This document shows positions 950-32,650 of a stretch of 64,000 nt of DNA, piece by piece (position 1 is the stretch's first letter; each line of letters opens with the position of its first letter). Source of the stretch: a virus. Lineage: Duplodnaviria; Caudoviricetes. Below the pieces are notes generated by a model. The model worked only from the letters and a program-made list of their open reading frames with translations. It ran no database searches and was not told where the DNA came from. The stretch is from IMG/VR virus record IMGVR_UViG_3300025707_000006, positions 32,001 to 96,000 of that record. One strand, written 5' to 3'. The translations under genes and the position numbers were made by a program.

Positions 950-1996
950 TTACCCCCTGTTTAGATATGAAGAAGCAACACGACTAGCCCTGCGTTTATT
1001 GATGTCTCTTAATACGAGATCGACCACGCTTAGTTGAGCCGATGGTTTGACATTGGGCAACAGACCTGCAATCTCAATCGCTAACTCTTTTCTCGACAAC
1101 CCGCTTTGAGCGAGGTTTAAGATTTGAGATACCTGTTCATCTGAAACATCTGTCTCTGACTGCAAGCAAGGCAGTAAGGAAGCCATTTTAGAGGTTGTTG
1201 AGGGTAAGTGTCTGATGATCTCTGGGAATGTGGAGATACCTTTACAAGTACGGATTAAGTCAGCCCCCTCAAACAAGAACGCAGTACATTCTCCTTGAGC
1301 GTTCTTTTCAAAATCAAGGGAATACTGTCCAACACCTGGAACTGAGACTTTGTAAACAAGATATATCCCGTCCACATCTGCTTTACATGACCACTTATCA
1401 AGCATGGTCATGTAGCCTAAGTGCTTCACACTTGATACGATCTCTTTTACAGAGCTTACAAAGTCATCTCTAGTAGCCATGATTTGTCTCCCATCTTCTG
1501 TTATTTCACGCTCAATCATAAGAGCAGGTCTGCGAACTAAGTAGTTAGGCCACTTCTCGTACCACTTAGCATAGAAGTCATCTTCGGAGACTTCACGAGT
1601 GGTCTTGTCGGGGTTGGGTAGATTCGGGTCAGCCACATGAACTACATAGCTTCCTTTTTCACCTGTAACATCAAAGATCAAACTAGCATGACTCCAATCC
1701 CTACCTTCGGGATTCCATGCAATAAGTACAGGCTTACCCTCATCTGTCCACGCTTTTACTTGGGTCAAAGTAGCTGGTGTAGTGAGGGTAGCTCGACACC
1801 CAAAATACTGAGCACAAGCTAAGACTTCTTCCCACCTAGCCCCTTGCATAGGTTTTGCACCAATCACTTGATTGACTTGATCCTCGTTGCACTTAACGCC
1901 AACAGCATTTAGAGCCATACAGGTGGAGGTCGCCACACAACTAAACTGTGAACGCTGTCGTATTGGGCTCACATCTGCTTTTGCTGATCTTCTCAT
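950..1996 (-). CDS. Peptidase C39-like cysteine protease plus two C-terminal modules
   Basis: QRSQFSC (Gln/Cys), WSHAS (His) and VADPN (Asp) in C39/papain-like order; starts MRRSA and ends RRASRVASSY. Confidence 0.7.
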   Translation of the reverse strand: MRRSAKADVSPIRQRSQFSCVATSTCMALNAVGVKCNEDQVNQVIGAKPMQGARWEEVLACAQYFGCRATLTTPATLTQVKAWTDEGKPVLIAWNPEGRDWSHASLIFDVTGEKGSYVVHVADPNLPNPDKTTREVSEDDFYAKWYEKWPNYLVRRPALMIEREITEDGRQIMATRDDFVSSVKEIVSSVKHLGYMTMLDKWSCKADVDGIYLVYKVSVPGVGQYSLDFEKNAQGECTAFLFEGADLIRTCKGISTFPEIIRHLPSTTSKMASLLPCLQSETDVSDEQVSQILNLAQSGLSRKELAIEIAGLLPNVKPSAQLSVVDLVLRDINKRRASRVASSYLNRG

Positions 1997-1997
1997 G

Positions 1998-2049
1998 ATA
2001 GGTATCCCTTTCTATTGTTAGAAAAGGCACACCTATAAAGAGACTACAA
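1998..2049 (-). promoter_or_regulatory. Class-B promoter-like motif overlapping an RBS-occluding hairpin
   Basis: TTGTAGTCTCTTTATA (2049-2034); 17-bp stem 2036-2019/2014-1998 with one bulge and an ACAA loop covers the AAGGGA RBS of the 1996 ATG. Confidence 0.65.
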
Positions 2050-2059
2050 ATCTACTGTC

Positions 2060-2821
2060 TTATCTTCTCTTAAACTTCGCTTTATTGAGGTGAATCTGAA
2101 TGTGTCCTTTTTCTCCTATACCAATATCATAGTCCTTATCGTAGCCCGATTTGAGCTTTTGAAATATGGGGTACTTTCTTGTTAGGAGTTTATTAAGATC
2201 ATTGGTTAGAGGTCCAGCCCACTCATCCCACCAACCTTCTTCATCCCAACCTTCTGGATCACAGTCATCATCCCAATCCTCATCACAGTCATAATTCTCT
2301 CCAACATAATGGTCGAGTCTATGTCTATTCATAGGTTCTATCCATAGGAACCAGGTATCTCCATCGTCACTTAGATCCATACCACTCATACGACTGCCAT
2401 TCGGGGTCCTTGATCTAATCAAGAAATCGTATACCTCTTGAGCTGTCGGTAGTTGTTCTTCAACTGTAGGTCGAGATCGAGGTGTTGATCTAGTAGGTGT
2501 TGGTTGTCGAACAGCTCTTGCACTTGGAACAGAGGGTTGTCTACCTGTTGGGTTGGATCTAAATGAGTCAGCCAAGTCAGATGCGTTGTTTCTGTGCATC
2601 ATCTTTCTGATGTTTTTTAGATCACGATCACTAAGATCTCCACCGTCTTTGAGGATCTGAAGGTATCCTCCAAGTTCAATGACCATTCTCGTGTCAGTTC
2701 GGTTTTGAGCTATGAAACCCCTAAGAACTTCATAAGCCTCTGTCTTAGTAGTCGCTTGTTTTTCAAGCCTTGCAATCCTCATCTCAAGACTTCTGATTAT
2801 TTCTGAGGCTGATCTTCTCAT
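2060..2821 (-). CDS. Leader-bearing hypothetical protein with an acidic, Trp-rich segment
   Basis: N-term MRRSASEIIRSLEMRIARLEKQA; DCDEDWDDDCDPEGWDEEGWWDEW tract. Confidence 0.75.
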   Translation of the reverse strand: MRRSASEIIRSLEMRIARLEKQATTKTEAYEVLRGFIAQNRTDTRMVIELGGYLQILKDGGDLSDRDLKNIRKMMHRNNASDLADSFRSNPTGRQPSVPSARAVRQPTPTRSTPRSRPTVEEQLPTAQEVYDFLIRSRTPNGSRMSGMDLSDDGDTWFLWIEPMNRHRLDHYVGENYDCDEDWDDDCDPEGWDEEGWWDEWAGPLTNDLNKLLTRKYPIFQKLKSGYDKDYDIGIGEKGHIQIHLNKAKFKRR

Positions 2822-2874
2822 AAGTGTTCTCCATTGATTTAGGTTAGTTAAGATCTAGTATAATGAAACTATTA
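2753..2874 (-). repeat. Promoter+UTR+leader module copy
   Basis: TAATAGTTTCATTATA...AACCTAAATCAATGGAGAACACTTATGAGAAGATC followed by leader codons. Confidence 0.85.
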
Positions 2875-3774
2875 AAAGCGATCTCTATCAAAAGAATCGC
2901 TATCAAAGTCTGCAATCACATCATATTCAATTTGAGCAACGACAATAACAGTTAAATATCTGTCATCATCTCGAAAGATGTCTCTAACTTCATAATCATA
3001 CTCGATCACTTCGATTTGAGAGATGTTATGATAGCTAGGGAGTCTCTGTTTTATCTCATATTCAACTTCACCAAAAGCTAAGTCAATTTCTTCTGATCCC
3101 ATATTTCTCAAGATGTTGTTCTCAATGTTCTTAGTGAGAGCATCACACAAGATTTTAGTAGATTTATCTTCTGGAGGATAGAAGTCATCTAAGTTCATCT
3201 TAGCTAGTTTCTCAAGGTCTTTTAAGTCAACTTTGAGCTTCATCTTGGTCTTTGATCCTACGACACCCGAAACTGTGTCCAATTCGGGATAAGCTGGATT
3301 GCTAGGGTGTAGCATAGAGTTTGATTCAACTTCGATCTCACCTTTCATAAGTTTTTCATTCTTATTGATGACTTCACCATCAAGAATAGAAGCAGACAAA
3401 GCATGGAGGAAATGATTTGCTTGTCGATCAGAAACACCTGGCATCATTGCTTGAACAGACTTTAATCCTGTACCTGCTTGTTTCAGACTCGCATTACGAT
3501 AACTCGATGTTATCCGATCTGCATCACGATCTGACAGATACATATCTGTATCCCGATCATAATACTTGCCTGCTTTCGGGTCGTAGTAAAGAACTTCACC
3601 ACCTTTAAACATGAAAGGCCCTTCAAGACCTTGATTGGAAAGATCTGTGTACCGATCACGATCAAGACGGGGCAGACGATGTTTAGCCATCATTTCTTCA
3701 TGGTGTCTCTTTGCAGAGGATCTCTTCTCAAGGTTCGCAATACGCACCTCAAGATTTCTGATTGTATCTTTCAT
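2872..3774 (-). CDS. Leader-bearing two-module hypothetical protein (start at ATG 3774)
   Basis: AAATGGAG RBS; MKDTIRNLEVRIANLEKRSS leader variant; GLEGPF..VLYYDPK module; internal RNASLKQAG junction. Confidence 0.75.
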   Translation of the reverse strand: MKDTIRNLEVRIANLEKRSSAKRHHEEMMAKHRLPRLDRDRYTDLSNQGLEGPFMFKGGEVLYYDPKAGKYYDRDTDMYLSDRDADRITSSYRNASLKQAGTGLKSVQAMMPGVSDRQANHFLHALSASILDGEVINKNEKLMKGEIEVESNSMLHPSNPAYPELDTVSGVVGSKTKMKLKVDLKDLEKLAKMNLDDFYPPEDKSTKILCDALTKNIENNILRNMGSEEIDLAFGEVEYEIKQRLPSYHNISQIEVIEYDYEVRDIFRDDDRYLTVIVVAQIEYDVIADFDSDSFDRDRF

Positions 3775-3818
3775 TAGTATCTCCATTTATTTGGTAGGGT
3801 TAATGATCTAAAATTTGA

Positions 3819-4934
3819 CTATCTAAGAGAGACTGCTTCCATTTTATAAGTCAAATAAGTGATTGCAGGGTATCGACTCGCTGTCTTACCCTCTACCATC
3901 TCATCATATTCGTCAGTATTAACCACCCAGCGATACATCGCTTTCTCTAAGAGAGCTAAAAACCCTGTTATGATGAGTGGTGCAAAACTACCTATGTTTT
4001 GTTTTAGATAATCCTTAACCTGATCTGCATTTAAACTGATCGGTTGGTATTGAGATATTGGAGTCTCTATCGTTGTATGCTCAATTTGAAGGAAGTTATT
4101 ATCTGAAGCAGGGATAGCGTCTAATGTAAGATCTCCTTTTGACATTGCTACTTCCATTTTTTTAGCAAGGTCTTGGGCTTCTTCTATCGTGGGGAGCTGT
4201 GTGGTCGGAGGAACTTCTTGAACAATACGAACCCTTGTATTTTGACTCAAAGCGGTATACTCAGTCATATCTGCTAAAGTGGTTCTTAACCCAGAGGCTT
4301 GGACAATCAAACGAGCTAACATCACAATGATCGTGGTCACTACTGTGCCTTTTAAAGCCATTATCCCCACTACCCCTATGAGAGATGTGAAAAAACGATA
4401 AAGTACCTTAGAATACCTTTTAAGAGCGTTCATGAATATCTTAAAGCTATCCCCTTCACTAATCTTCTTAGGGTTAAGGATATGCTTAAAGTCTGAATAC
4501 CATGAAAGGTATGCACTTTTCATCCTCGTTTGGTTTTCGCCCACATACTTTTTAACAAGGTCTTTTAAAGGAATCTTTTTATCCTCTGCCTTACCCCCTG
4601 TGAAGATAGATTTCAAAGGGTCTGAAGGATTAAAGGAAACGATCTTAGGTAAGCCAGCTCTTGTGGTTGTCACACCTGCCATAGCTCTAAAAATCCTTGA
4701 ACCCAACAACGCCCCTAAAGAGTCGTTAATCTTGGATTTATTTCCCTCAACTTCAAGATTGACCGTATTGTATATGTCAGCAAATCCATTGATGATCTTC
4801 TTAACAATGTTCTTAGGGATATTAACAAGACCTTTAAATGTACTTGAAATATCATCTATGAACCCTGCTTGACGCTCTAAGTTTGCGACTCTAATTTCAA
4901 GCTCTCTTATGGTTTCACTGGCAGATCTTCTCAT
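3819..4934 (-). CDS. Leader-bearing protein with hydrophobic (membrane) segments
   Basis: MRRSASETIRELEIRVANLERQA; FFTSLIGVVGIMAL..TIIVMLARLIV and FAPLIITGFLALL hydrophobic helices. Confidence 0.75.
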   Translation of the reverse strand: MRRSASETIRELEIRVANLERQAGFIDDISSTFKGLVNIPKNIVKKIINGFADIYNTVNLEVEGNKSKINDSLGALLGSRIFRAMAGVTTTRAGLPKIVSFNPSDPLKSIFTGGKAEDKKIPLKDLVKKYVGENQTRMKSAYLSWYSDFKHILNPKKISEGDSFKIFMNALKRYSKVLYRFFTSLIGVVGIMALKGTVVTTIIVMLARLIVQASGLRTTLADMTEYTALSQNTRVRIVQEVPPTTQLPTIEEAQDLAKKMEVAMSKGDLTLDAIPASDNNFLQIEHTTIETPISQYQPISLNADQVKDYLKQNIGSFAPLIITGFLALLEKAMYRWVVNTDEYDEMVEGKTASRYPAITYLTYKMEAVSLR

Positions 4935-4998
4935 AAGATTTCTCCATTTGATTTAAGGTTAATGAGATCACTTATGAGAACCTATAAAGAGATTACAA
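4866..4998 (-). repeat. Promoter+UTR+leader module copy with a 10-bp inverted repeat
   Basis: TTCTCATAAG (4928-4937) / CTTATGAGAA (4971-4980); UTR nearly identical to the copies at 14255 and 20083. Confidence 0.9.
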
Positions 4999-5427
4999 AT
5001 CTATCACCACACAAAGACCAGAGCTAGGGTACTTCCTTTTAAGAGAATCCCACACCCTCATGGCTTGGTCGCTAGTAGAACCCGATATGCTACATTTTTC
5101 GGGTATGATGACAAAGGGTTTCCTCACCCTTTTCGACCAACCCTCTATGAGCCTTTGATAAATCTCTGACCCGATTCTCTTGCCATGATAGTCTTTACTA
5201 AGACTAACCACAGTTACTTCAAGAATTCGTATCTCCTCACCCTCCATGACTTGAGGGTATTCATAACTGATGTCAATGAGGTCATCAGAACAGTGGTAGG
5301 TATGTACTACTTCCATCATAGAGATAGAGTCTCCATAAGCCCTAGCAAGCCCGATGACATTACCTTGATCTTTAACCTCTACAAAAACAGAGGTTGGTGT
5401 GGTTTTGACAGAGAACTCTAACATCAT
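4993..5427 (-). CDS. GNAT-like acetyltransferase
   Basis: VSLSKDYHGKRIGSEIY resembles the acetyl-CoA-binding motif A; TSDQAMRVWDSL; paralogous to both halves of 33147..34142. Confidence 0.6.
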   Translation of the reverse strand: MMLEFSVKTTPTSVFVEVKDQGNVIGLARAYGDSISMMEVVHTYHCSDDLIDISYEYPQVMEGEEIRILEVTVVSLSKDYHGKRIGSEIYQRLIEGWSKRVRKPFVIIPEKCSISGSTSDQAMRVWDSLKRKYPSSGLCVVIDL

Positions 5428-5428
5428 C

Positions 5429-5989
5429 TTAGTATTTGAGATCTAGTCCGAGTTTGCCATCCGTACCTGGTACTTTACAGCAGATACCTACGACTGTTGG
5501 GTCAACACCTAAATTGGCGTTAAGATTAGCGTCTGGGTCATTACATAACAACCCATTTTCGCTTATTTTGAGAGGGTCATTAAGGTTATATGTAATAGGG
5601 CCAGCGTTGCGAACGCCATTAACTGCTAAGGCTGTTGTTTCAAACTCTTTGAACAGAACTCTAGCACCCCCATTAATGAGAGTCAGAACAGCCGCACCCG
5701 AAGCTGAAGCTAATGCACCCGTGTTCTGATAGGATGTGAAGTTTCTGTATGTGGATTGTCTAGCGTCAGCGTAGTTTTCTGATCCATAGAGAACGAAACC
5801 CGCTACATATTGACCATTGGATTTTTCAACGGTAAATTCAGCCACGCTATTTTCGTTTTCTACATAGTGAACCCAAGTGCCACCTTTCCAACCTGTTTGA
5901 CGCATGATCTGTCCTGCGGTGCAAGGTGTTTTATCGCCATTTTTTAAGACATCAATGTCATCCATAGTTAAATTAAGATCTATTGACAT
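5429..5989 (-). CDS. Putative virion structural (head decoration/cement-like) protein
   Basis: Gly/Ala/Thr-rich and beta-like; YNLNDPLKISENGLL..VVGICCKVP pattern resembles capsid decoration proteins; co-oriented downstream of a class-B promoter. Confidence 0.35.
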   Translation of the reverse strand: MSIDLNLTMDDIDVLKNGDKTPCTAGQIMRQTGWKGGTWVHYVENENSVAEFTVEKSNGQYVAGFVLYGSENYADARQSTYRNFTSYQNTGALASASGAAVLTLINGGARVLFKEFETTALAVNGVRNAGPITYNLNDPLKISENGLLCNDPDANLNANLGVDPTVVGICCKVPGTDGKLGLDLKY

Positions 5990-6492
5990 TAGACTTCACC
6001 TTTGTCTTTTTTATCTTGTAAGACCTTCTTGACTGCTTTAGCCATTTCTTTCTTGTCTAAGTGTCTTTCAACAACCTTCTTTACAAGATCCTTTTTCACC
6101 TCAGATTTGGTCTGTACTTTGGGTGTAGGGGGTTTAGCTTTAGCTAACTCATCAAATGAATTAGGTACACCCTTAATCGGTTCTTCTGTTTTCACAATGA
6201 ACTGATTGAGGGTACTGAACTCTTTACCTCCAGGTCTCTTGACGATCTCATCGGGAGGAGGGGGTGCAATCACAGATTCGCTTTGGATGAGATCGTCATC
6301 TTTTTTCATCTCACCCGACTGTATCGCTTTTTCGGCTGTGTCTACTTTGTTTGTGATAGCTTTCGACTCTGCTAAGTTCCTCACTGATCTTTTGGTTGGG
6401 TTGTCAAAGAAAACAGACTCGGCTGACTGTGCCTGTTCAAGCTCTGCTACTCTCCTCATCAATGAGGCTATTTTATATCTAAGATTGCTCAT
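5989..6492 (-). CDS. Hypothetical protein with a leader-like N-terminus
   Basis: MSNLRYKIASLMRRVAELEQAQSA; exact TAATAGTTTATTTATA at 6541-6526 upstream. Confidence 0.7.
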   Translation of the reverse strand: MSNLRYKIASLMRRVAELEQAQSAESVFFDNPTKRSVRNLAESKAITNKVDTAEKAIQSGEMKKDDDLIQSESVIAPPPPDEIVKRPGGKEFSTLNQFIVKTEEPIKGVPNSFDELAKAKPPTPKVQTKSEVKKDLVKKVVERHLDKKEMAKAVKKVLQDKKDKGEV

Positions 6493-6693
6493 ACTAAACT
6501 CCTTGAGGCTTTAGTGTACGCAATTTATAAATAAACTATTACTTTTTACCTATAGCGTGGGGAATCAAAACTTTTTAGATTCAACTCTATTTCCTGTTTA
6601 GGGGCTAAGTTAGGGTCTTGAGTAAACTCGTGCCACAGGTTGATCTTGACCCATGTCGGGTATATGATTAAGGGTCATACGGTATTCGACAGG

Positions 6694-12320: not shown

Positions 12321-12981
12321 TTGGATAAGGCAAGGATTAATAGGGACACACCCTATACACCTACCTTATCTAGTATCAAGAGGGGTGAATGAAAGTTGTC
12401 TAGTAGATTTCTACTCATGGCAACCCCACACCAATGTTCAATGTCCAAAGTTTAAAGCTAACTTTGGACATTCAGGTGAGCGTATTAAAGACTCACTCAT
12501 AATCCCTATTACTTCCCCACGAGGGGAGATCTTAGGGATGGAAACACGCAGGATCAACGAGGACGGGTCTAAAAGAGTACATCAGTACCGAACCCTCAAT
12601 GCTCAATGGAATCCTTATGCTTTAGGTGCAGAGGAAGGTTTTAAGGCATTGTGGGAACTAGGAGATTTATGGGTTGTTGAGGGGATCTTTGATAAGATCT
12701 CTCTCGATAAGGTCATACCTAGTTGTGATGCCTGTATCTCAACCTTGAGGGCTGGTATGGATGCTATCACAATGGACATGATAGAGCGTTTCTACACACC
12801 TGCCTCAACCATATACATCTGTTATGATAATGATGAGACAGGTCAGAAGAAATCATATTGGCTTCAGCGTGAGATGAAGAAGCGAGGTATGAGGGCTGTT
12901 ATCTGGAAGTATCGAGGGAAAGACCCTAACGATGTGTGGACACAAGGAGGAGATCAAGCTCTAAGGAGAATGTTCCTGTAA
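12310..12981 (+). CDS. DNA primase (DnaG-type catalytic core/TOPRIM, no zinc-binding domain)
   Basis: YLVSRG, LIIPI, WVVEGIFD, ICYDNDETG, GKDPND. Confidence 0.85.
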   Translation: MRDDWIRQGLIGTHPIHLPYLVSRGVNESCLVDFYSWQPHTNVQCPKFKANFGHSGERIKDSLIIPITSPRGEILGMETRRINEDGSKRVHQYRTLNAQWNPYALGAEEGFKALWELGDLWVVEGIFDKISLDKVIPSCDACISTLRAGMDAITMDMIERFYTPASTIYICYDNDETGQKKSYWLQREMKKRGMRAVIWKYRGKDPNDVWTQGGDQALRRMFL

Positions 12982-14255
12982 TCTTCTTCAATATCTCTTA
13001 CTTCTAAATCCATGATTGCGTAAGAAAGCCCATCAACACCTCTCTTACTTTCATTTAGATTTATAGTAAAGTGTTTAGTTCCTGTTGTGATGTCCTCATC
13101 TTCTTCATTCTCAAAATATTCAATAACACATTGAATGTCCAAACGAAAATCTTCTTCATCGAAGAAAATCTTATCCCTTTCGAGATAATAATCGGAAAGC
13201 TCATATACCTCTCTACCTAGTTCAGTGCTTATCCACCTATCCACAACCTTAATCAAATGTTTTAATGCTTTCCCACTTCTATCTATTAAGTTAAGATTAA
13301 TCGCCTTACGAGCGTTACCGTAGGATTGTTTTTCGAGTCTTGCGATCCTCATCTCAAGAGGATTAATGATTTCTGATGCTGATCTTCGGTTAGAGGTACT
13401 TTTCAGATGTTTTACCACTTCTTTACGATCATGCTTTCCATCTACACTCCCTACTTCAACCCCGACAGGTTTTGCATCGGGAGAGCTAAAGTAAATGTAA
13501 GCCAAAAAGTGTTCATCAACCATACCCTTCTCTTCACAAAAGTCATCATAGCATATTTCTTTCTTTTGACCCTTATCAATCAAAAGCTCATAAAGACCCT
13601 GCTCGGATTTGATTTGCACAGCTTTGAGAATCTTTGGTCTGCTTTTGAAACCTTTGATAAATTTGGCTCTTTCAGCGGCTTTAATGACTTCTGTCTCCGT
13701 TAAACCAAAAGAGTCTTTTACCCATCTTTGAGAGAAGAAGTCTTTAACATCTTTAAAGTTAAATGCTTGTTTTTCAAGTCTAGCGATACGACCCTGTTTA
13801 CGAAGCCTATCTCGCTCTTGGTTGACCATTTTTTGATGCTCCTCTACTTCTTTACGAGCACTCTCTTGACCTACACGATAAATAACTTGATCAACGACTC
13901 GTTTAATGAAGTTTCTTTCGCTCATCTTTGAGTCATTTGCACCACTCAGTTCAAAGTCTACTTGTCTAAAGTCTCTGTTTCCACCTGTGATCTTGTACTC
14001 AGCAGTATCTTTCCCTTCTCTTTTTAGAGAGACTTGGTACACCTCACCTTCAAATTTGAACTTCCCTGATAACCGATTGTCCTTATCCATTTTCACATCA
14101 GAATTGACTGCTCTGTTGTCTTTTAGTCCTTTTAAAAACCACCCATGTACCGTATCTAGGGGGTTTTTTTCAAAAAGTCCAAAGATTGCTTGTTTTTCAA
14201 GACGAGCAATCCTCATCTGAAGGTTATTAATAATTTCACTGGCAGATCTTCTCAT
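12954..14255 (-). CDS. Three-module polyprotein-like protein with the leader repeated three times (start at ATG 14255)
   Basis: MRRSASEIINNLQMRIARLEKQA / GRIARLEKQA / RRSASEIINPLEMRIARLEKQS, separated by ~110-125 aa of unrelated sequence. Confidence 0.8.
   Translation of the reverse strand: MRRSASEIINNLQMRIARLEKQAIFGLFEKNPLDTVHGWFLKGLKDNRAVNSDVKMDKDNRLSGKFKFEGEVYQVSLKREGKDTAEYKITGGNRDFRQVDFELSGANDSKMSERNFIKRVVDQVIYRVGQESARKEVEEHQKMVNQERDRLRKQGRIARLEKQAFNFKDVKDFFSQRWVKDSFGLTETEVIKAAERAKFIKGFKSRPKILKAVQIKSEQGLYELLIDKGQKKEICYDDFCEEKGMVDEHFLAYIYFSSPDAKPVGVEVGSVDGKHDRKEVVKHLKSTSNRRSASEIINPLEMRIARLEKQSYGNARKAINLNLIDRSGKALKHLIKVVDRWISTELGREVYELSDYYLERDKIFFDEEDFRLDIQCVIEYFENEEDEDITTGTKHFTINLNESKRGVDGLSYAIMDLEVRDIEEDYRNILLRA
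13323..13388 (-). repeat. Internal copy of the leader-coding repeat
   Basis: CGAAGATCAGCATCAGAAATCATTAATCCTCTTGAGATGAGGATCGCAAGACTCGAAAAACAATC. Confidence 0.85.
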
Positions 14256-14318
14256 AATGGTTCTCCATTTGATTAAGGTTAGACTGATCACTTATGAGAA
14301 CCTATAAATAAACTATTA
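14187..14318 (-). repeat. Promoter+UTR+leader module copy
   Basis: TAATAGTTTATTTATAGGTTCTCATAAGTGATCAGTCTAACCTTAATCAAATGGAGAACCATTATGAGAAGATC. Confidence 0.9.
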
Positions 14319-15005: not shown

Positions 15006-15368
15006 TTATTTGTCCTTTCGAGTCCAAGAGCCTGTCCAACTAGACTCTGTTGAGTTAAAGCCCCATTGGGGTGTTCCCAAAACAGGTGCAGGAGCTACGG
15101 TTTTACCGAGAGCTTTACGCTCCACCTCCCAAGACGATGCTCCTGTCTCATCACAGATGTACTTGAAGCTCACATAGCGATGCTTTTGACCCTTCTTGAT
15201 GTTGAACTTAGGGTGGTCTTTACGAGCGACCACCACTTTGTTAACAAAGGTGGCGTACCAATAACCATCCTCGTACTCGTACCCACTACAAGTGAGATGA
15301 CCACGATTCAAGCCGTCATAACCTTCTTCAGCCATGTAGTCGTTGTATCTGTCCATTGCTAAACTCAT
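15006..15368 (-). CDS. Hypothetical (putative early) protein
   Basis: AAGGAGAAC RBS; class-A motif at 15438-15423. Confidence 0.65.
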   Translation of the reverse strand: MSLAMDRYNDYMAEEGYDGLNRGHLTCSGYEYEDGYWYATFVNKVVVARKDHPKFNIKKGQKHRYVSFKYICDETGASSWEVERKALGKTVAPAPVLGTPQWGFNSTESSWTGSWTRKDK

Positions 15369-15449
15369 GTTGTTCTCCTTAGTGGAGTCTTGGTTGATGA
15401 GGTTCATTCCTCATGTAGTCTTATAGATAAGGGGTTACAGTTTCACCCC

Positions 15450-16010
15450 TTAGTCCTCATCTTCCTCCTCTCGCTCCTGCTCCTCACGATCAGCGGTACA
15501 CCATTTACAAAGAGCTTCATCATGGTATTCGTACTCGCTGATCTCATTCCCACAGTCCTCACACTCGTACTCCTCTTCGGGATCAGTCTCGATCTCAAGA
15601 GCACCCTCTGAGGTGTAGAAGGTGAAAGTACCATCATAGTAGTCAGCTCTACTAACTTGATCTTTTGTCATGGACACTGCTTTGACCCCACTGTCTTTGA
15701 GTTTCTCTTGGACTACCTCGTCCTCGATAAGCTCGACAGGGATTGCCCCAATGAGTCCTGCGTCAACAGGATAAGAGCGTCCGTCAGACCCCACATAAAA
15801 TCCATCGCCATGAGCTGTGGAATGCACAAAGATGGGATGACCCATGTAAGTGAGGTGTCCGTCAAAGTCCTCTTTGGACTCTGCCTTTTCAAGATCCTCG
15901 CAGAAGTTATTAACCCAAAGAGCATCGTTAGTCGCCCCTCCTGCCTCGATGGTGTGGAGGAAATAACAAGGATCTCCGATAAAGTGTGTTGGTGTTGGTG
16001 TCGCAGTCAT
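15450..16010 (-). CDS. Hypothetical protein with a C-terminal zinc finger and acidic tail
   Basis: FIGDPCY, TAHGDG, VDAGLIG, CEDC..CKWC; class-A motif at 16082; GGAG RBS. Confidence 0.7.
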   Translation of the reverse strand: MTATPTPTHFIGDPCYFLHTIEAGGATNDALWVNNFCEDLEKAESKEDFDGHLTYMGHPIFVHSTAHGDGFYVGSDGRSYPVDAGLIGAIPVELIEDEVVQEKLKDSGVKAVSMTKDQVSRADYYDGTFTFYTSEGALEIETDPEEEYECEDCGNEISEYEYHDEALCKWCTADREEQEREEEDED

Positions 16011-16059
16011 TTTTATTCTCCGTTTGGGGGAGTGATGAGGTAGTGATTCTGCCTCCATA

Positions 16060-16293
16060 CTAGGCAATAGATAAGGGGTTACAATCACACATTCGGGATT
16101 GGTTCTCCATATATAGACGAGCAGACTTAGAGATCTCAACGACATCAATCCTTGCTGTCTTTAAGTGGTTTGCTTGATCCACCTTCTCGGCTTCGATTTC
16201 TGCCACGATGCGTAGCGAATATACCTTCTCTACCTTGCCTTTGTGCGTGTAGTAGAGTGGCTGTCCTGTAGCTTTATTCTGAACATAATACAT
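16060..16293 (-). CDS. Small hypothetical protein
   Basis: MYYVQNKATGQPLYY...; fills the intergenic gap. Confidence 0.4.
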   Translation of the reverse strand: MYYVQNKATGQPLYYTHKGKVEKVYSLRIVAEIEAEKVDQANHLKTARIDVVEISKSARLYMENQSRMCDCNPLSIA

Positions 16294-17632: not shown

Positions 17633-17636
17633 ATGA

Positions 17637-18221
17637 ATGAAATTGTCGTCAATGGCGAAACTAATTTTACTGGACCCCATGAAGTTCCTTGATCTCGATC
17701 ATGGACAAAAGAACCCAGTAGATGCAAAGCACATTTGGACTGTTAAACACGAACAGGACAGTGCTGTCAGCGAAGGACTCTTTGTTGACGCACTAAAGTC
17801 TATCCGTAAGTTTGCTTCACAAAGGGGAGGCAAAGGTGAAGAAAAAGCCCTTATCCATAGATCCATTATCGAATACTCTGACCTTGTGTGGTCTAGGTTC
17901 GGTTCAGTTAATCAACTGAACTATCACCTCAAGGGTCTTTACGGTTGTGAACTGCCGAAAGTGTTTAGAGACCATATGCGACATCTTTTCTCAAATGCTC
18001 CTCAAGACACCATCGAAGAAGACCCGATTGAGGAGGTCTTAGAAGATCAGCCAAACATCTCACAAATCAGCCTTTGTGGTGTGAGTTTCAATCTCACCAC
18101 AGGGTCTAGTCTCATCATCGGTGAACTGGCTACGAAGTCGCTCAATTTGAAAGGGATGAGGTCGATTAATATCGACAAGGTGTCTGAGGGTCGTTTGTTT
18201 GGGGTTAGCCTTAAAGCCTAA
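17637..18221 (+). CDS. Hypothetical protein sharing its C-terminal module with the previous gene
   Basis: SLIIGEL..IDKVSEGRLFGVSLK vs VICIGEV..VDRIENNTLYGVKIK. Confidence 0.65.
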   Translation: MKLSSMAKLILLDPMKFLDLDHGQKNPVDAKHIWTVKHEQDSAVSEGLFVDALKSIRKFASQRGGKGEEKALIHRSIIEYSDLVWSRFGSVNQLNYHLKGLYGCELPKVFRDHMRHLFSNAPQDTIEEDPIEEVLEDQPNISQISLCGVSFNLTTGSSLIIGELATKSLNLKGMRSINIDKVSEGRLFGVSLKA

Positions 18222-18302
18222 GACTATCTTATGTGTCTCGGTTTCGTATACAGAGTAGTCGGGGTCTACCTCTTTAATAGCAAAAACCTGTCGAGTGGAC
18301 GC

Positions 18303-18758
18303 TTAGTATTCCTTACCTTTGGGTTCTTTTGTGATGTCTCTACGCCTATCTTTTAAACCCGCTTCACTAGCTTGAAGAACTAAGAATTTTTGAATGTCTC
18401 TCTTAGGGATATTTTTGTCTACACCAGTAGCTGTGACAACCGCAAACAGATCTGCCATCGAATTTTTATGCTCTCCTTGCTGATACAAATTCATTGCCAC
18501 TGATACTTTAATTTTATCACCATTATGTTCAATAATGGCTGTGTTCTTTGAACCCATGCCTAGCCTTTTTTGTATTTCTGCGTACCCTATCCCATACATA
18601 GGGTTACCATGAAACCAAAGTGATGCGGTATCAAACTTGGGCCTCTTTTTTTGTTCTCTTTCAGGTTCTTTAAATAAGTCCAAGATAGCACCTAAAAAAC
18701 CTTCTTTTTGCATATATCTGTACGCAACTCTACTAGCCATCTTATTACGAGTTCTCAT
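18303..18758 (-). CDS. Hypothetical protein with an RVASRY-type leader
   Basis: MRTRNKMASRVAYRYMQKEG-FLG; TAATAGTTCTTTTATA at 18813-18798. Confidence 0.7.
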   Translation of the reverse strand: MRTRNKMASRVAYRYMQKEGFLGAILDLFKEPEREQKKRPKFDTASLWFHGNPMYGIGYAEIQKRLGMGSKNTAIIEHNGDKIKVSVAMNLYQQGEHKNSMADLFAVVTATGVDKNIPKRDIQKFLVLQASEAGLKDRRRDITKEPKGKEY

Positions 18759-18816
18759 GGTTTATTTCCTTTGTCTGAGAGTCTCTATATGACTGCCTAT
18801 AAAAGAACTATTACAC

Positions 18817-19368
18817 TTAGTCCCAATCCTCCCAATCATCCTCTTCTTCCAAAGAAGGGTAAGACTCATTGTCCTTAATATCGTTCTCTACCTCAGTAAC
18901 ACCTTTAAAGGCACTCGAACCCCAAATACAACCACTACCTACATCCCAAGGGTAGTACCAATGGACTCTCAGTCTCTCACTCGATTGAAAGGGGCAGATT
19001 TCTATACCATCATAATCTTTTGAGACAGCAACCCAATCTATCGCATCTTCCCCACCTATTTCTATGCCATACTTCCCTGTAAACATCCATAATTCTTGTT
19101 TTATTCGTATTACACACATACGATTAAGATTTACTTCAAGTAAATATTTATGTTGGTATCCCGAAGCCCAACTAGGGTTCCGACTTTGCACCCACTCTTT
19201 CCAATCCTTATCGCAAGCATACCAAAGACCCTTTGGTTTTTGGAGGGCACTTATAGTCTTGTCCTGTCGAACATTCCGAAATGACCCCATTGGTCTTGGA
19301 GAATACACCATACGATCATAGCTTTTCGCTTGAATGTGTAGAGTTGCGATTTTTCTGATTACATCCAT
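18817..19368 (-). CDS. Hypothetical protein (KPxGLWY / YDGIE / WDVxSGCIW type)
   Basis: Class-B motif at 19417-19401; MDVIRKIATLHIQAKS leader-like start; acidic tail. Confidence 0.7.
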   Translation of the reverse strand: MDVIRKIATLHIQAKSYDRMVYSPRPMGSFRNVRQDKTISALQKPKGLWYACDKDWKEWVQSRNPSWASGYQHKYLLEVNLNRMCVIRIKQELWMFTGKYGIEIGGEDAIDWVAVSKDYDGIEICPFQSSERLRVHWYYPWDVGSGCIWGSSAFKGVTEVENDIKDNESYPSLEEEDDWEDWD

Positions 19369-19419
19369 GATACTCTCCTATATAATATATGTAAGAGATT
19401 AGATAAAGGAACTACAAAT

Positions 19420-19764
19420 ATGAGTGAATGGGTCGTATATGTCATCCAGAGTCAGCAGATCAGACGCTCTGCTAAGACAGGTAAAGAACTACCTGGTTTC
19501 TTCTATGTAGGTTGCACCACAGATGTTAACCGTAGGCTGAGACAGCATCAGGGTTTCATCAAAGGAGGCGGGAAATACACTGCAAAGCACCGACCTTGGA
19601 AGCTCATGTGTACTTATGGCACATACGCTAATAGATCAGAAGCCATGAAAGCTGAGATGGCTCTAAAGAAAAAGCGTGGTAAGGCTAGGCTCTATTGGAC
19701 AGAGCAAGAGTCTAAATGGTGTCGAGGTCGTAAAGAAATAGGACTTAAAAACGACTGTATTTAG
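19420..19764 (+). CDS. GIY-YIG endonuclease (SLX1/UPF0213-like)
   Basis: VVYVI...FYVGCTTDVNRRLRQH..GGKYT..RPWKL...EAMKAE..LKK. Confidence 0.88.
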   Translation: MSEWVVYVIQSQQIRRSAKTGKELPGFFYVGCTTDVNRRLRQHQGFIKGGGKYTAKHRPWKLMCTYGTYANRSEAMKAEMALKKKRGKARLYWTEQESKWCRGRKEIGLKNDCI

Positions 19765-20083
19765 CTATGTCTGAATCCATCTGTTCATTCATCATCCCAT
19801 GAGGCGGGTTTCCAATATCTAAAGCGTCACCCGTAGATGTTGTCATAAGAATATGATGATACTTTGAGTAGTTTATTTCTACACCATTAGAAAGAGAGAT
19901 AGAAACCATCTCTCGACCTGTAGGGTCCTTCCCTCTTTGCACATCAACAACATTTCTGTTTGATAGTTTTTGCTCGGCAAGATCGTGAACATAACGCAGA
20001 TCTACGGCCTCACTAGCAAACCTTTCAAGTTTCGCAATCCTAGTCTCAAGGTTTCTAAGGATTTCTGATGCAGATCTTCTCAT
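19745..20083 (-). CDS. Leader-bearing small protein
   Basis: MRRSASEILRNLETRIAKLERFA. Confidence 0.75.
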   Translation of the reverse strand: MRRSASEILRNLETRIAKLERFASEAVDLRYVHDLAEQKLSNRNVVDVQRGKDPTGREMVSISLSNGVEINYSKYHHILMTTSTGDALDIGNPPHGMMNEQMDSDIAKYSRF

Positions 20084-20147
20084 AAGGGTTTCTCCATTTG
20101 ATTAAGGTTAAGATGATCACTTAAGAGAACCTATAAATAAACTATTA
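20015..20147 (-). repeat. Promoter+UTR+leader module copy
   Basis: TAATAGTTTATTTATAGGTTCTCTTAAGTGATCATCTTAACCTTAATCAAATGGAGAAACCCTTATGAGAAGATC. Confidence 0.9.
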
Positions 20148-20179
20148 AAGTTATGGTGTCGAGGTAGAGAACCTAGATT

Positions 20180-20569
20180 TTAGAGCCTGCGAAGAACCCT
20201 CTTAGACTCCTTGAGGAAGTCTGCCTTAACAGAGTCAGAGTCTGGTCCAACCTCGACACGACCAATGGTCAGTCTACCCTGGTTTCCTTCAGACACATCA
20301 ACTAAAATGAGATATCCATTCTTCAAGTCTTCTTCATACACGACATTAACATGATTCATATAGCCATTTGTCCACCTTAACGCTCCTGTAGGCGAAGACT
20401 CAAGAGTATAACCTAACAATTTAGTTCCCGCTAACCTTCTCACAGATTGCATGGGGGACGAGGCGAGGCTGTGTCGGATGCGATAGAGGGGATCAGGTGT
20501 AGATTGTCTTTCAAGACGAGCGACCCTAGTCTCAAGGTTACGGATGATTTCTGATGCTGATCTTCTCAT
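20180..20569 (-). CDS. Leader-bearing small protein (start at ATG 20569)
   Basis: MRRSASEIIRNLETRVARLERQS. Confidence 0.75.
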   Translation of the reverse strand: MRRSASEIIRNLETRVARLERQSTPDPLYRIRHSLASSPMQSVRRLAGTKLLGYTLESSPTGALRWTNGYMNHVNVVYEEDLKNGYLILVDVSEGNQGRLTIGRVEVGPDSDSVKADFLKESKRVLRRL

Positions 20570-20632
20570 AGGAGTTCTCCATTTTGTTAAGGTTAATGAG
20601 ATCACTTAAGATCATTTATAAATAAACTATTA
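20501..20632 (-). repeat. Promoter+UTR+leader module copy
   Basis: TAATAGTTTATTTATAAATGATCTTAAGTGATCTCATTAACCTTAACAAAATGGAGAACTCCTATGAGAAGATC. Confidence 0.9.
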
Positions 20633-20917
20633 AAGTTTAAGGAAAGACTCTACAAGCACCTCTGCGAGATCTTCCCCCTCAACCCCATGTGAACTTACCC
20701 ATACCTCCCCATCTCTCCTTACAGACCCATTATTGAGTGCGTATAGGTGGTGGAGGTACGCAAGGGTAACCGTGTCCTCAAAGTCGGGCAACCATGTTTC
20801 ACTAGTAAGAGTGTATCTAACTTTTTGTTTAGGTTTGAAGTGAGGGAAAACTAGGATGCCAGTCACGCAGACCCACTTAGGGTGTTTAACTAAAAGCCTA
20901 AGACGATCAATATCCAC
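20630..20917 (-). CDS. Hypothetical protein
   Basis: ORF in a co-oriented overlapping run. Confidence 0.55.
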   Translation of the reverse strand: MDIDRLRLLVKHPKWVCVTGILVFPHFKPKQKVRYTLTSETWLPDFEDTVTLAYLHHLYALNNGSVRRDGEVWVSSHGVEGEDLAEVLVESFLKL

Positions 20918-21089
20918 CAGAGTTAAACCAACCCTCTCCCTTTAATACGAAGCTACTCTTTGAGATAAGTTTCTGGGGGTCTTCTGTCTTACATTTAGGA
21001 CAAGGAGGTGATGGGTCATTCATTTTATGTGTGGCTTCAAAGTCATGTTTACATTCTTCTTGTTTACATCTGTAGTTGTAAGTCGGCAT
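20907..21089 (-). CDS. FmdB-family zinc ribbon protein
   Basis: MPTYNYRC..C.HDFE...CPKC...KLIS.SSFVLKG.GW. Confidence 0.85.
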   Translation of the reverse strand: MPTYNYRCKQEECKHDFEATHKMNDPSPPCPKCKTEDPQKLISKSSFVLKGEGWFNSGGY

Positions 21090-21343
21090 TATTTTTTATC
21101 ACTTTCTTGTTTGAGTCTTTCTTCACGCTGTCTTCTTCGAGCTTGACTCTCTAAAGATTGCACATACTCTAGTAATCTACCAAGCTCTCGATCTACTTGC
21201 TTGAGGTTTTTAGCCAAATCTTTATCGGAACATACCTTATCGTCTTTTCTATAAGTACAATAAGAAATAACCGATCTGACAGCCTCCTTGCTTGTGAGGA
21301 GTTTTTGTTGGATAGCCCTAGCAGACCTTAATGGAGTTGACAT
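21089..21343 (-). CDS. Hypothetical coiled-coil protein
   Basis: AAGGGGA RBS; TAATG overlap with the next gene. Confidence 0.55.
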   Translation of the reverse strand: MSTPLRSARAIQQKLLTSKEAVRSVISYCTYRKDDKVCSDKDLAKNLKQVDRELGRLLEYVQSLESQARRRQREERLKQESDKK

Positions 21344-21797
21344 GAATATATCCCCTTTTGACTTTCATAATGAAGCCTACAATATGATAAACACAACCGT
21401 GTCTGGTGCTAAAGAGAACGGTCTTGATATATCTACATTACCTCCTCATTTATCCATAATGACAAGTGAGGAGGTACTTCATGGAAAAAAAGTTATACTT
21501 GGATTCTCTTTACCAGAGATCCTTCAAGATGTAAGCCCTAGTTTATGGTCTTTCATTGCACATCAAAAAATGCAAGAGGAAACAAACAGTATAGGGTTCG
21601 TTTTTTGGTGCTTGGTTGAAGATTCTAAGTGTGGTGGACAATCTGTCTTTGGTATGTCCTACTTTAAAGAAGAAGGATTCAAAGGATTTATCTCGGACAT
21701 CGAGTTTCAATATGAACCCGAACTTCTAACAGACCCTCATCAAATTGTTCCCTCTTTCTTAGACTACGACTTTGAAAATGAATATCTGGTTCATTAA
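21342..21797 (+). CDS. Hypothetical protein
   Basis: GGAG RBS before ATG 21342; abuts the next gene. Confidence 0.55.
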   Translation: MNISPFDFHNEAYNMINTTVSGAKENGLDISTLPPHLSIMTSEEVLHGKKVILGFSLPEILQDVSPSLWSFIAHQKMQEETNSIGFVFWCLVEDSKCGGQSVFGMSYFKEEGFKGFISDIEFQYEPELLTDPHQIVPSFLDYDFENEYLVH

Positions 21798-29074: not shown

Positions 29075-29103
29075 CACTCCACATCTCTTGAAAGGAGAAC
29101 AAA

Positions 29104-30407: not shown

Positions 30408-30408
30408 G

Positions 30409-30889: not shown

Positions 30890-31393
30890 ATGAGTGATGG
30901 AAACATATCAGGCACTACACCATTACCTGAACACTGTCACTTTGTTGGCAGTGATAAGATAATCTGCTCGGACAACGATGGCGTTGATCGAGAATGTGAA
31001 TTTTTCGAGGGTGAATTAGGATGCAAGGTGACAGCACAACTTGTGGATGTAAACCCAACAGGTGCGGAGATGAAAGATGTCTTTATAGGTCATGCTTATC
31101 TTGTAGTGGTTGTCGCTATTTTGAGTTTAGCCTTAACTCAAATCATTAAACCTTTCATTTGGAAAACCTGCACCGAAAAGTCGGATGCTGTGATTAGACT
31201 ATTTGCGATACTCACGGGTGCGGGTATTGCCTACCATTTATCAAACCCACTTAAGATGATTGATGTCTATATGGGAGCAAGTGCGGGAGCTATCAATGCT
31301 TTCGTGATAAAAATGTTTAAAGCTAAAGTCAAGAAATCACTAGGTGTTGAATCAACACCAGACCCACAAGATAAGGAAAAAGAAGATGAATAA
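30890..31393 (+). CDS. Holin-like membrane protein (paralogue 1)
   Basis: Three hydrophobic segments and a basic/charged C-terminus; highly similar to 31770..32153. Confidence 0.55.
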   Translation: MSDGNISGTTPLPEHCHFVGSDKIICSDNDGVDRECEFFEGELGCKVTAQLVDVNPTGAEMKDVFIGHAYLVVVVAILSLALTQIIKPFIWKTCTEKSDAVIRLFAILTGAGIAYHLSNPLKMIDVYMGASAGAINAFVIKMFKAKVKKSLGVESTPDPQDKEKEDE

Positions 31394-31742
31394 ATCAGTA
31401 CAACGAGTTGCTTCAAAATATATGGAAGCAAGATTATTTGGAATACTTAGTACTCCTGTTAGCAATCAGGAAATAAGAAGAGCAGTTAAAAGATTACAAT
31501 GGGCTTTCCCAAAAGGTGAATACAAAGTCATGTCCATTATGGGGCAAGACAGGAAGAAAGTGATTAGGACTACTACACCAGATGGTTTCTTGTCTGAGAT
31601 TACTGGTCTTGAAATGGACAAAAAAGGGAATCTATCTTATCGGGTCTTAACTGTGTCTAACCCTCATGGCAGAGACATTAAAGTTGATAGTTTAGACGAA
31701 GCGACAGATACTGTATATAGATTATTAAAGAATCACTTGTAA
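31386..31742 (+). CDS. Hypothetical protein with an RVASRY-type leader
   Basis: MNKSVQRVASKYMEAR-LFG. Confidence 0.65.
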   Translation: MNKSVQRVASKYMEARLFGILSTPVSNQEIRRAVKRLQWAFPKGEYKVMSIMGQDRKKVIRTTTPDGFLSEITGLEMDKKGNLSYRVLTVSNPHGRDIKVDSLDEATDTVYRLLKNHL

Positions 31743-31769
31743 GGATGCTTTGAAAACCATAGGAGGCTT

Positions 31770-32153
31770 ATGAGTAACGAGACTAAAAAAACTGAAACGA
31801 CCGAGACTCTGATGGGACCGCCTGCTCCTAAAATAGAAAAATATGATCATATTGGTCATGTGTATCTTATAGTCGTGGCGGCTATTGTTAGTTATGCAGT
31901 CACTGAAATTGTAAAACCTTTCATCTTCAAAACCTGTGCAGAAAAATCTGAGGCTGTTATTCGCCTCTTTGCTGTTATTACAGGAGCGATTGTAGGGTAC
32001 TCTTTAAGTAATGATATTCTTGACCTATGGCTTGGAGCTTCGGCAGGGGCATTAAATGCTTATGTCATCAAAATCATCAAGTCAAAAATTAAATCCACAG
32101 TGGGTGTCGAACTCACACCCACTCCCTCCGAAGAGGGGGGTAAAGAAAAGTAA
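31770..32153 (+). CDS. Holin-like membrane protein (paralogue 2)
   Basis: IGHVYLIVVAAIVS..KPFIFKTCAEKSEAVIRLFAVITGA..GASAGALNAYVIK. Confidence 0.55.
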   Translation: MSNETKKTETTETLMGPPAPKIEKYDHIGHVYLIVVAAIVSYAVTEIVKPFIFKTCAEKSEAVIRLFAVITGAIVGYSLSNDILDLWLGASAGALNAYVIKIIKSKIKSTVGVELTPTPSEEGGKEK

Positions 32154-32269
32154 TAGTTTATTTATCATTCACTCTTTTGAAAATGAAATGGAGAAATAAA
32201 ATGAGAAGATCCGCATCAGAAATCATCCGTAACCTTGAGTCTAGGATTGCTCGTCTTGAACGACAATCG
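32151..32269 (+). repeat. Promoter+RBS+leader module copy (plus strand, divergent UTR)
   Basis: TAATAGTTTATTTATC...AAATGGAGAAATAAAATGAGAAGATCCGCATCAGAAATCATCCGTAACCTTGAG. Confidence 0.85.
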
Positions 32270-32650
32270 GGTCGAGGATCAAATCGTCTTGAAAGACAAG
32301 CAAGACCAAATGAGAAAATAGAAAATGAAACATCAAAAACAATTCTCACTAAGAAGCAATGGGCAGGGATTGCAAAGACACACGCCCCAAAACCTTTTGA
32401 GAATCCTCTTGGAGATCAAGAGGTGTATTATGACTATCGCAGAGGAGGTATAATCGTTGATGATCGTGATGAGCATGGTGATGATGGAGAAATATTTCTA
32501 ATCAAAGAGATTAAGGGGGGCGGGGCTGAGGGTGCATTTCAAGTCTATCAAGAGGTTTATCCAGATGCTAGACTGGGCCAAAATGGCTGGAATTTTGATG
32601 ATATGAAGTATTTAGGGAAGACACTAGATCAACGAGCGAGGAGGGGATAA
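32201..32650 (+). CDS. Leader-bearing protein with a duplicated leader end
   Basis: MRRSASEIIRNLESRIARLERQS-GRGSN-RLERQA. Confidence 0.75.
   Translation: MRRSASEIIRNLESRIARLERQSGRGSNRLERQARPNEKIENETSKTILTKKQWAGIAKTHAPKPFENPLGDQEVYYDYRRGGIIVDDRDEHGDDGEIFLIKEIKGGGAEGAFQVYQEVYPDARLGQNGWNFDDMKYLGKTLDQRARRG

Follow-up and report, generated by a model that had tools for sequence, protein, structure and literature searches.

A near-invariant N-terminal leader on unrelated proteins of uncultured marine jumbo phages and its dispersed promoter cassette

Leader-tagged genes at the locus

The stretch of DNA analysed here (the window) comprises 64,000 nucleotides, bases 32001–96000 of the 107,480-bp IMG/VR record IMGVR_UViG_3300025707_000006 (G000; CheckV 34% complete, GC content 41.5%), and holds a set of genes that open with one and the same short peptide, the leader or tag, followed by unrelated sequences, the cargos. 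The record encodes a family-A-like DNA polymerase (phrog_17, 4e-94) as well as a block of baseplate genes that includes wedge proteins (phrog_6, phrog_975, phrog_43), and is, judged from these genes, a fragment of an uncultured marine jumbo myophage. No DNA-level match to the window was found among GenBank phages, and the closest named record is an uncultured 485-kb phage whose baseplate protein shows 32% identity. The leader reads MRRSASE(I/V)IRNLExR(I/V)ARLE(K/R)Q(A/S) and opens six genes of the window, which are named here by their start coordinates. A degenerate pattern of the first nine leader codons matched the window seven times against 0.10 expected, and none of 100 shuffles reached seven. 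The whole contig encodes 11 tagged proteins, with four tagged genes lying beyond the window. The leader genes and their upstream regions are listed below, including one assignment by a leader hidden Markov model (HMM) and one promoter score from a promoter weight matrix (PWM); lengths are in amino acids (aa) and UTR denotes the untranslated region.

2060–2821, minus strand: leader-tagged gene, 253 aa (leader codons 1–23 at 2753–2821)
2822–2874, minus strand: 5'UTR and putative late-type promoter box (2859–2874) of gene 2821
2872–3786, minus strand: gene with a partial leader (residues 8–28), assigned by the leader HMM
3819–4934, minus strand: leader-tagged gene, 371 aa (leader 4866–4934)
4935–5000, minus strand: conserved 5'UTR and promoter box (4981–5000, PWM 14.3 bits) of gene 4934
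12954–14255, minus strand: leader-tagged gene, 433 aa, with three leader copies
13308–13388, minus strand: internal full leader copy of gene 14255, residues 290–316, starting with Asn instead of Met
13743–13793, minus strand: internal partial copy of gene 14255, GRIARLEKQAF, residues 155–171
14256–14318, minus strand: conserved 5'UTR and promoter box (14303–14318) of gene 14255
19745–20083, minus strand: leader-tagged gene, 112 aa (leader 20015–20083)
20084–20147, minus strand: conserved 5'UTR and promoter box (20132–20147) of gene 20083
20180–20569, minus strand: leader-tagged gene, 129 aa (leader 20501–20569)
20570–20632, minus strand: conserved 5'UTR and promoter box (20617–20632) of gene 20569
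32151–32200, plus strand: promoter box (32151–32166) and a different, shorter UTR of gene 32201
32201–32650, plus strand: leader-tagged gene, 149 aa (leader 32201–32269, followed by an RLERQ repeat)

The original prediction had named seven leader genes and two weaker versions. Six of the seven carry the full leader (2821, 4934, 14255, 20083 and 20569 on the minus strand, 32201 on the plus strand), whereas the gene whose start had been placed at 3774 (gene 3786) holds only a partial copy that lacks MRRSASE (HMM positions 8–28, 24.2 bits). The two weaker versions were not borne out. The gene at 1996 scores –0.6 bits with the leader HMM, and its MRRSAK start is the conserved N-terminus of a C39-like peptidase; the gene at 6492 reaches 4.7 bits (E 0.13), which is not significant. 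Two of the three leader copies in gene 14255 are internal and have no start codon; the gene looks like three fused cassettes.

A dispersed cassette with exchanged cargo

The conservation extends upstream of the leader. The box TAATAGTTTATTTATA matched the window 10 times against 1.47 expected, and the UTR is common to genes 4934, 14255, 20083 and 20569 and in part to gene 2821, while gene 32201 combines the box with a different UTR. In blastn comparisons the shared blocks measure ~60–135 bp and run from the box to about codon 20–24, in agreement with the dispersed promoter–UTR–leader module of ~130 bp that had been proposed for this DNA.

The fate of the cargos was followed in a complete relative, G001 (375,691 bp, CheckV 100%, 448 open reading frames (ORFs)), which has most genes in common with G000 at ~80–95% protein identity and in largely syntenic order. 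The flanks of seven loci can be aligned with G001 (75–87% nucleotide identity). Inside these loci only the cassette block finds matches, to many dispersed G001 cassettes, and the cargo DNA has no G001 counterpart. Where G000 carries two tagged genes (20083 and 20569), G001 has, between the same neighbours, another gene that holds its leader internally. For gene 3786, G001 has a version in which the same body is preceded by 120 aa of unrelated sequence, the junction lying immediately after the leader, and G000 also contains a homologue of a 191-aa G001 gene joined in frame to a leader and cargo. The cargo of gene 2821 is kept in G001 (81% identity); for that of gene 4934 no counterpart in G001 was found. 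The suggested scan of genome and relatives thus revealed cargo turnover at homologous loci, and because homology is confined to the cassette, the cargo differs and the junctions fall at the leader end, the data speak for the cassette as a recombination substrate, as had been predicted. Since box, 5'UTR and leader codons form a dispersed unit, the tag within it could spread from gene to gene and swap cargo.

The cargos themselves diverge completely, as first described. Clustering of the cargo parts by BLAST gave 61 clusters from 87 proteins, and 152 clusters from 228 in a larger set, 113 of them singletons; among the 11 tagged proteins of the G000 contig none of the 55 pairs is alike (best E-value 0.5). 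A Pfam family was assigned to four of 88 tagged proteins (WGR in three, HAAS in one) and to at most five of 150 in a second set, so that nearly all cargos are ORFans. Their isoelectric points are distributed like the background, and transmembrane-like segments are depleted (6 of 228 vs 35 of 312 in the background, p = 1.2e-4). An ordinary paralogue family that has diverged past recognition everywhere except at the N-terminus is extremely unlikely to explain these proteins. The comparisons operate at the sequence level, where a very remote fold likeness of small cargos could escape notice; yet the tagged proteins range from 43 to 433 aa without homology along their whole length, conservation falls off abruptly at codon 23, only a few members have a WGR or OB-fold domain, and the 3786 body has an alternative N-terminus in G001. 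The picture of a portable tag on unrelated proteins has accordingly held up, and extends to 1,121 representative proteins (see below).

Metagenomic reads were consistent with a dispersed element. Of the DNA runs labelled marine or seawater, 19 contain the cassette region. Eight of them may be the record's own source; the remaining eleven trace to ten studies, plus one run that names none. Within positions 18200–21400, three independent seawater DNA runs gave a summed contig depth at the cassette 20554–20660 of 5–10 times the value in the adjacent sequence, and many read contigs terminate at the cassette borders, both as expected of a dispersed repeat with varied flanks. Read joints between two neighbouring cassettes have sides of only 23–24 letters and may be repeat artefacts. 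The sole RNA run (X20) contributed two 151-nt contigs at 20884–21226, outside the cassette genes.

Selection on the peptide and its anatomy

Among 85 unique cassettes, all six Arg codons are used for the invariant residue R15, both TCN (44+) and AGY (32) codons for S6, and four codons each for A5 and A17; conservation ceases after codon 23. Because the codons vary synonymously at invariant residues, selection acts on the leader peptide, which confirms the earlier suggestion. A different pattern is seen at codons 2–3, which are nearly always AGA AGA (73 and 75 of the 85 cassettes), unlike the later Arg codons.

These two codons, and the joint movement of promoter, UTR and first codons as blocks, are what an explanation at the level of DNA or RNA can draw on, in which conservation is mainly a property of a mobile expression cassette and the peptide a passenger. 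We regard it as very unlikely. Besides the heavy synonymous variation, the peptide is kept in 38 of the 85 cassettes that are missing the canonical UTR, internal copies without a start codon retain it, and the conserved stretch corresponds exactly to a capped amphipathic helix. RNAalifold returned no consensus structure for the UTR and start (energy 0.0). A candidate stem between the UTR (TGATCT) and codons 3–5 was likewise rejected, showing neither covariation nor consensus structure.

The invariant or near-invariant residues are M1, A5, S6, E7, I9, L12, E13, R15, A17, L19 and E20. Positions 21–23 are occupied by [KR] (84%), Q (64%, with K or S at 12% each) and [AS] (88%; A 53%, S 35%), and small polar residues follow. 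The hydrophobic moment of residues 6–23 is 0.57, compared to 0.29 ± 0.15 after shuffling, with 4% of shuffles reaching 0.57. In a heptad register, I9, L12, I16, L19 and A23 fall on a/d positions and E13, R15 and E20 on e/g positions, giving the hydrophobic seam and charged flanks of a zipper; the conserved span of ~2 to 2.5 heptads, ending at residue 23, is shorter than the three to four or more heptads of a regular one. By established helix rules S4-x-x-E7 reads as a helix capping box. Taken together, capping box, hydrophobic moment and heptad register let the tag be read as an N-capped amphipathic mini leucine zipper of two heptads with a net charge of +3.

Scale and distribution

The leader is far more abundant than the window alone suggests. 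In G001, a strict pattern found 23 sites, with none for the reversed-pattern control, the leader HMM recovered 30 of 448 ORFs at ≥28 bits, and de novo clustering of N-termini returned one cluster of 28. The strict pattern gave 10, 11 and 7 sites in the relatives G002, G003 and G004, and the strict DNA pattern identified 53 stretches across IMG/VR. In 84 of 87 regular-expression matches the tag lies at most six residues from a Met. A 32-column profile searched against 1.84 billion representative proteins found 1,121 at E ≤ 0.001 and 157 at E ≤ 1e-10, the best match beginning at residue 1 in 144 of the 150 top representatives.

The tag is phage-borne only: its pattern has no match in 185,579 species genomes. 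It is also confined within the phages. Relatives that keep the head protein (see below) at 84–89% identity are without it, including the complete G006 (436 kb, 62% GC), where the largest shared N-terminus comprises four genes; the tag is therefore an expansion of one sub-clade. G006 (L241–L262) has shared N-termini of its own on proteins of varied size, MSxLxKQWGPTI(K/R)EA on four and LREALIKLAxExPELRKHLVPLL on three, and the use of common N-terminal labels may be more general in this phage group.

In the literature searched, as far as its text was accessible, MRRSASE and ARLEKQ were not found and RIARLE occurred only in unrelated papers. An ESM Atlas search with the leader gave only unnamed clusters under 0.9, and a word-based homologue search with residues 1–40 gave four uninformative matches. 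The tag set is real, large and apparently undescribed in the literature searched.

The neighbouring C39-like peptidase

Two genes without a leader lie close to the tagged genes:

950–1996, minus strand: C39-like cysteine peptidase gene, no leader (domain residues 8–124; C-terminus RVASSYLNRG)
5989–6492, minus strand: conserved 167-aa gene with the same promoter box (6526–6541); its N-terminal helix is no significant leader

The peptidase gene lies directly downstream of the tagged genes 4934, 3786 and 2821. Its domain was recognised by Pfam (1.6e-5, 26 bits vs a cut-off of 24) and the Cys, His and Asp motifs are present, as read from the sequence. The N-terminus xAKAxVxPxRQRxQFxC is conserved in 45 of 47 relative loci, namely those with the N-terminus recovered.

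The arrangement raises the question of whether the leader is a pro-peptide or a recognition handle for a phage peptidase, either the C39-like one or the head maturation protease that these phages encode (see below), by which the cargo would be held inactive or marked for timed processing with no addressing role. In length and amphipathic-helix character the leader is like the leaders of the double-glycine type, and its helix runs into [KR]-Q-[AS] and small residues. Still, there is no Gly-Gly, positions 22–23 being mostly Q and A/S, nor any conserved cleavage site beyond the helix itself, and the peptidase protein is without an ABC-transporter partner. Moreover, peptidase and leader do not co-occur: of five jumbo-phage records that hold the peptidase at 59–64% identity, two of them 94–100% complete, four are without a leader match and one has a single weak match (16.6 bits). 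A role for the C39-like peptidase is weakened by the missing Gly-Gly and by its retention in records nearly devoid of the leader, and we consider processing an improbable explanation.

Promoter class and possible destination

The PWM built from the box was used to ask which other genes share it, with a limit of 150 nt to the gene start. G000 gave 24 matches (0–2 in five shuffles), 20 of them within this limit, and two of these matches precede baseplate genes of the window:

36332–36351, plus strand: same promoter class (15.8 bits) ahead of the first gene of the baseplate block (36398)
38740–38759, plus strand: same promoter class (18.2 bits) ahead of the baseplate-wedge gene 38802

In G001, 61 of 68 matches lie within 150 nt of a gene start, 23 of them before leader genes. 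The box precedes a head operon composed of a 344-aa protein, a 1,171-aa protein, the maturation protease (phrog_18299, 4.9e-14) and an acidic EF-hand protein, as well as the operon holding the 292-aa major head protein (phrog_2522, 2e-51). It also stands ahead of the baseplate block, an amidase and a 2,084-aa protein that is tail-fibre-like by its N-terminus only. The box can thus be attributed to a structural, presumably late, promoter class, and this shared class fits an expression of the tagged genes together with virion parts.

On these grounds we tentatively favour the view that the leader is a docking tag for late proteins, similar to a capsid targeting sequence and spread by promoter–UTR–leader cassettes, and that the assembling head is its most likely destination, although confidence in either part stays short of even. 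A short exposed helix that is near-invariant on more than 1,000 unrelated proteins points to one fixed binding partner, and co-expression with virion genes together with the precedent of phage T4 makes the head the likeliest place; common-partner binding, late expression, head destination and injection are all inferred. The tag would consist of a basic MRR start, the N-cap (S-x-x-E), the two-heptad zipper and small linker residues, and it would attach a large, fast-turnover set of small, soluble, unrelated proteins to one conserved partner. These proteins would be synthesised alongside the virion proteins, enter the assembling head and reach the next infected cell together with the DNA, in the manner known for the T4 capsid targeting sequence. 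The ~130 bp module would act as a recombination site through which the tag is spread and cargo exchanged.

Several observations weigh against this assignment. None of the recognised head proteins (major head protein, protease, acidic scaffold-like protein) matches the leader HMM. The three invariant Glu residues follow A-S, N-L and R-L, and none of these sites obeys the T4 cleavage rule (L/I)-x-E; only A5-S6-E7 fits the AxE rule of SPN3US-type phages, as given in the accessible part of PMC5694885, and cleavage at that site would not remove the helix from the protein. Leader–leader pairing would likewise be compatible with the e/g positions (R15, E20). The box occurs before a topoisomerase-IB-like gene that is not obviously structural and before a lipoprotein and a glutamine-synthetase-like gene, both judged from N-terminal sequences only, and since it precedes such genes "late" is itself an inference. 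A tblastn search (E ≤ 1) did not find the tag in GenBank phages, and no cultured relative was found to carry it. In addition, the gene lists of G000, G001 and G006 stem from a simple greedy ORF picker. Two further ideas were also given up. Recognition of LE as a protease site common to the leader and the scaffold-like protein was rejected: the [DE]LEA[DE] repeats of the latter occur in near relatives, and several more distant tag-bearing relatives have 0–2 LE. The capsid protein as a partner by co-conservation was dropped because the head protein is conserved in phages with and without the tag, tag-less relatives keeping it at 84–89%.

The head proteins were characterised further. In G001 their genes occupy 48.9–58.1 kb and code for the protease, the acidic scaffold-like protein, a 208-aa protein and the major head protein. 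The 292-aa head protein (L115:6001-6876; loci L114–L193) is 92–100% identical over the best 80 of 573 IMG/VR contigs, compared to a median of 62% for the protease and 44% for the scaffold-like protein, and the leader persists where the latter is only 35% identical. The high identity of the head protein in the tag-less phages G005–G009, which share 81 of 448 proteins at a median of 35% identity and differ in GC content (45% vs 62%), may reflect either extreme constraint or capsid gene transfer. With homologues in G006 for only 81 of the 448 G001 proteins, these genomes are too distant for presence and absence to pick a receptor; the G006 ORF list also missed the head gene. Complex prediction for the major head protein and the leader gave a score of 0.00, which is no verdict and was used neither for nor against binding. 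The AlphaFold2 model of the maturation protease is too poor to classify (mean pLDDT 52), and sequence comparison of the protease and the C39-like protein with solved structures returned nothing useful. T4 Gp23 (PF07068) and Peptidase_S77 (PF03420) had no match in G000, G001 and G002, the control genomes being equally blank. In G001, a very acidic 513-aa protein with EF-hand motifs (1e-7) and [DE]LEA[DE] repeats lies between the protease and the head gene (L097:10555-12096) and is probably the scaffold; derivation of the leader from it was rejected (HMM score –0.5).

The zipper character of the tag leads to a different proposal, namely that it pairs the tagged proteins with each other or docks them on a non-virion hub, acting late and unpackaged, where the hub could be a replication or cytoskeletal structure or a condensate. 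Its heptad seam with invariant R15 (g) and E20 (e) suits parallel self-pairing, RIARLE also appears in the accessible text of papers on the c-Jun zipper, and tandem and internal leader copies exist. The phage encodes a volactin-like actin (5e-75), and no head protein carries or visibly matches the tag. Conversely, two heptads are short for a stable free-standing zipper, and a sequence that hardly varies across more than 1,000 families is more in keeping with one fixed receptor than with promiscuous pairing. The tagged genes further use the promoter class of head, baseplate and fibre genes, and hyper-variable small ORFans made with virion parts resemble the injected proteins of T4 as described in the available part of PMC3012670. 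We therefore regard pairing or a non-virion hub as doubtful, while taking it seriously. A similarly doubtful prospect is that the tag is not a capsid signal and serves as the address label of a new phage sorting system, in which one invariant mini-zipper would gather dozens of unrelated and quickly exchanged proteins into one body or compartment by leader–leader pairing or through a receptor, in one sub-clade of cosmopolitan marine jumbo phages and without a described counterpart.

Relation to known systems

Short peptides that dock cargo inside an HK97-fold shell are familiar from the helical or extended cargo-loading peptides of encapsulins and from the tails of phage scaffolds and proteases. 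Most of these signals lie at the C-terminus, and each is used by one or a few cargos. The tag is likewise a short peptide with a putative docking role, but lies at the N-terminus. With the double-glycine leaders of C39 peptidases it has in common the ~20-residue N-terminal amphipathic leader and a C39-like peptidase encoded beside the tagged genes; it differs in that no Gly-Gly (Gly-Ala, Gly-Ser) end and no transporter are present, and in that the peptidase also occurs in tag-less relatives.

The closest resemblance is to docking of the T4 type. According to the accessible sections of two reports, the T4 capsid targeting sequence is a short N-terminal peptide and the sole common part of the highly diverse internal proteins and Alt (PMC3012670, PMC5694885). 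The leader likewise is a short N-terminal peptide on otherwise unrelated proteins, its genes vary between close relatives, and, to judge from the promoter class, they may be expressed with the head genes. In contrast, the leader has 23 residues instead of 10–20, reads as a capped mini-zipper and breaks the T4 cleavage rule, and the small major head protein belongs to another family (phrog_2522). The scale also differs, with ~30 genes per genome and more than 1,100 clusters. For the giant phages of the phiKZ and SPN3US type, N-terminal propeptides have been proposed to target proteins to the prohead; in the available text these are mostly longer than 100 residues and end at AxE or (S/A/G)xE, and two diverged paralogues have an identical 15-residue N-terminus (PMC5694885). 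Both groups are giant myophages that pack many proteins, the packing being conjectural for the phages studied here, but those propeptides are not common to unrelated proteins, whereas here one short tag is near-invariant across unrelated cargos.

The mode of spread can be compared to the PeSL cassettes of T4-like phages, dispersed promoter motifs that border variable genes and are held, in the accessible parts of PMC2839356 and PMC4122927, to mediate modular shuffling. Here too, variable genes are bordered by a conserved promoter motif that recurs at dispersed sites. Unlike those cassettes, the module includes ~70 nt of coding sequence, which specify a peptide under selection, its promoter class goes with structural instead of early genes, and RNAalifold found no stem-loop in the UTR and start, the region upstream of the box not having been scanned for terminators. 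By analogy, the tag system appears to come closest in its working to a combination of the T4 capsid targeting sequence with PeSL-like shuffling, while being a member of neither by sequence or cleavage rule.

If the leader is a loading signal, a 23-residue profile would list the whole delivered accessory set of an uncultured phage clade that recurs in the seawater metagenomes of numerous studies. This set would amount to ~30 proteins in each genome and over 1,100 families, nearly always of unknown function. These would form a directly testable pool of candidate host-takeover and anti-defence proteins, and the leader itself could be used to load foreign proteins into a large capsid, as a short tag of natural origin. 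A route by which a phage can quickly exchange such genes is seen in the promoter–UTR–leader cassette. Whatever the destination, this would be to our knowledge among the largest sets of unrelated phage proteins with a single short signal.

Further features of the window and its relatives

A second motif, (A)SRVA(S/R)(R/K)Y(M/L), is present in four copies in G000 and ten in G001. Its sites include window positions 950–985 (the C-terminus of gene 1996), 18710–18758, 31386–31430 and 34145–34190, and L097:13586-17101 and 17108-18142 in G001. It is placed 5–9 residues from the N-terminus, at the extreme C-terminus (C39-like peptidase, a head-operon protein) or within large proteins, and the copy in the 1,171-aa head-operon protein is retained across diverse relatives. 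The motif may be a further docking or cleavage signal.

The volactin-like actin homologue mentioned above is full-length (Pfam PF25216) and lies upstream of the window (L010:3142-4143, contig 19142–20143); its G001 counterpart is 97% identical. A DUF481 outer-membrane beta-barrel-like protein (3.5e-11) with an apparent signal peptide is encoded at L010:11689-12471, downstream of the peptidase cluster. Four paralogues of ~400 aa at L009:7487-11272 and 15111-16286 all start with MFF(D/E)YEK; they are full-length kin, unlike the leader set. In G001, the topoisomerase behind the box is eukaryotic-type IB-like (Pfam PF01028, 1.3e-12; L098:1721-3145). The large terminase of G001 (L095:3255-7340) has 1,361 aa, and its N-terminal part also matches an endonuclease family (phrog_4645, 1.3e-5), which suggests an inserted or fused element.

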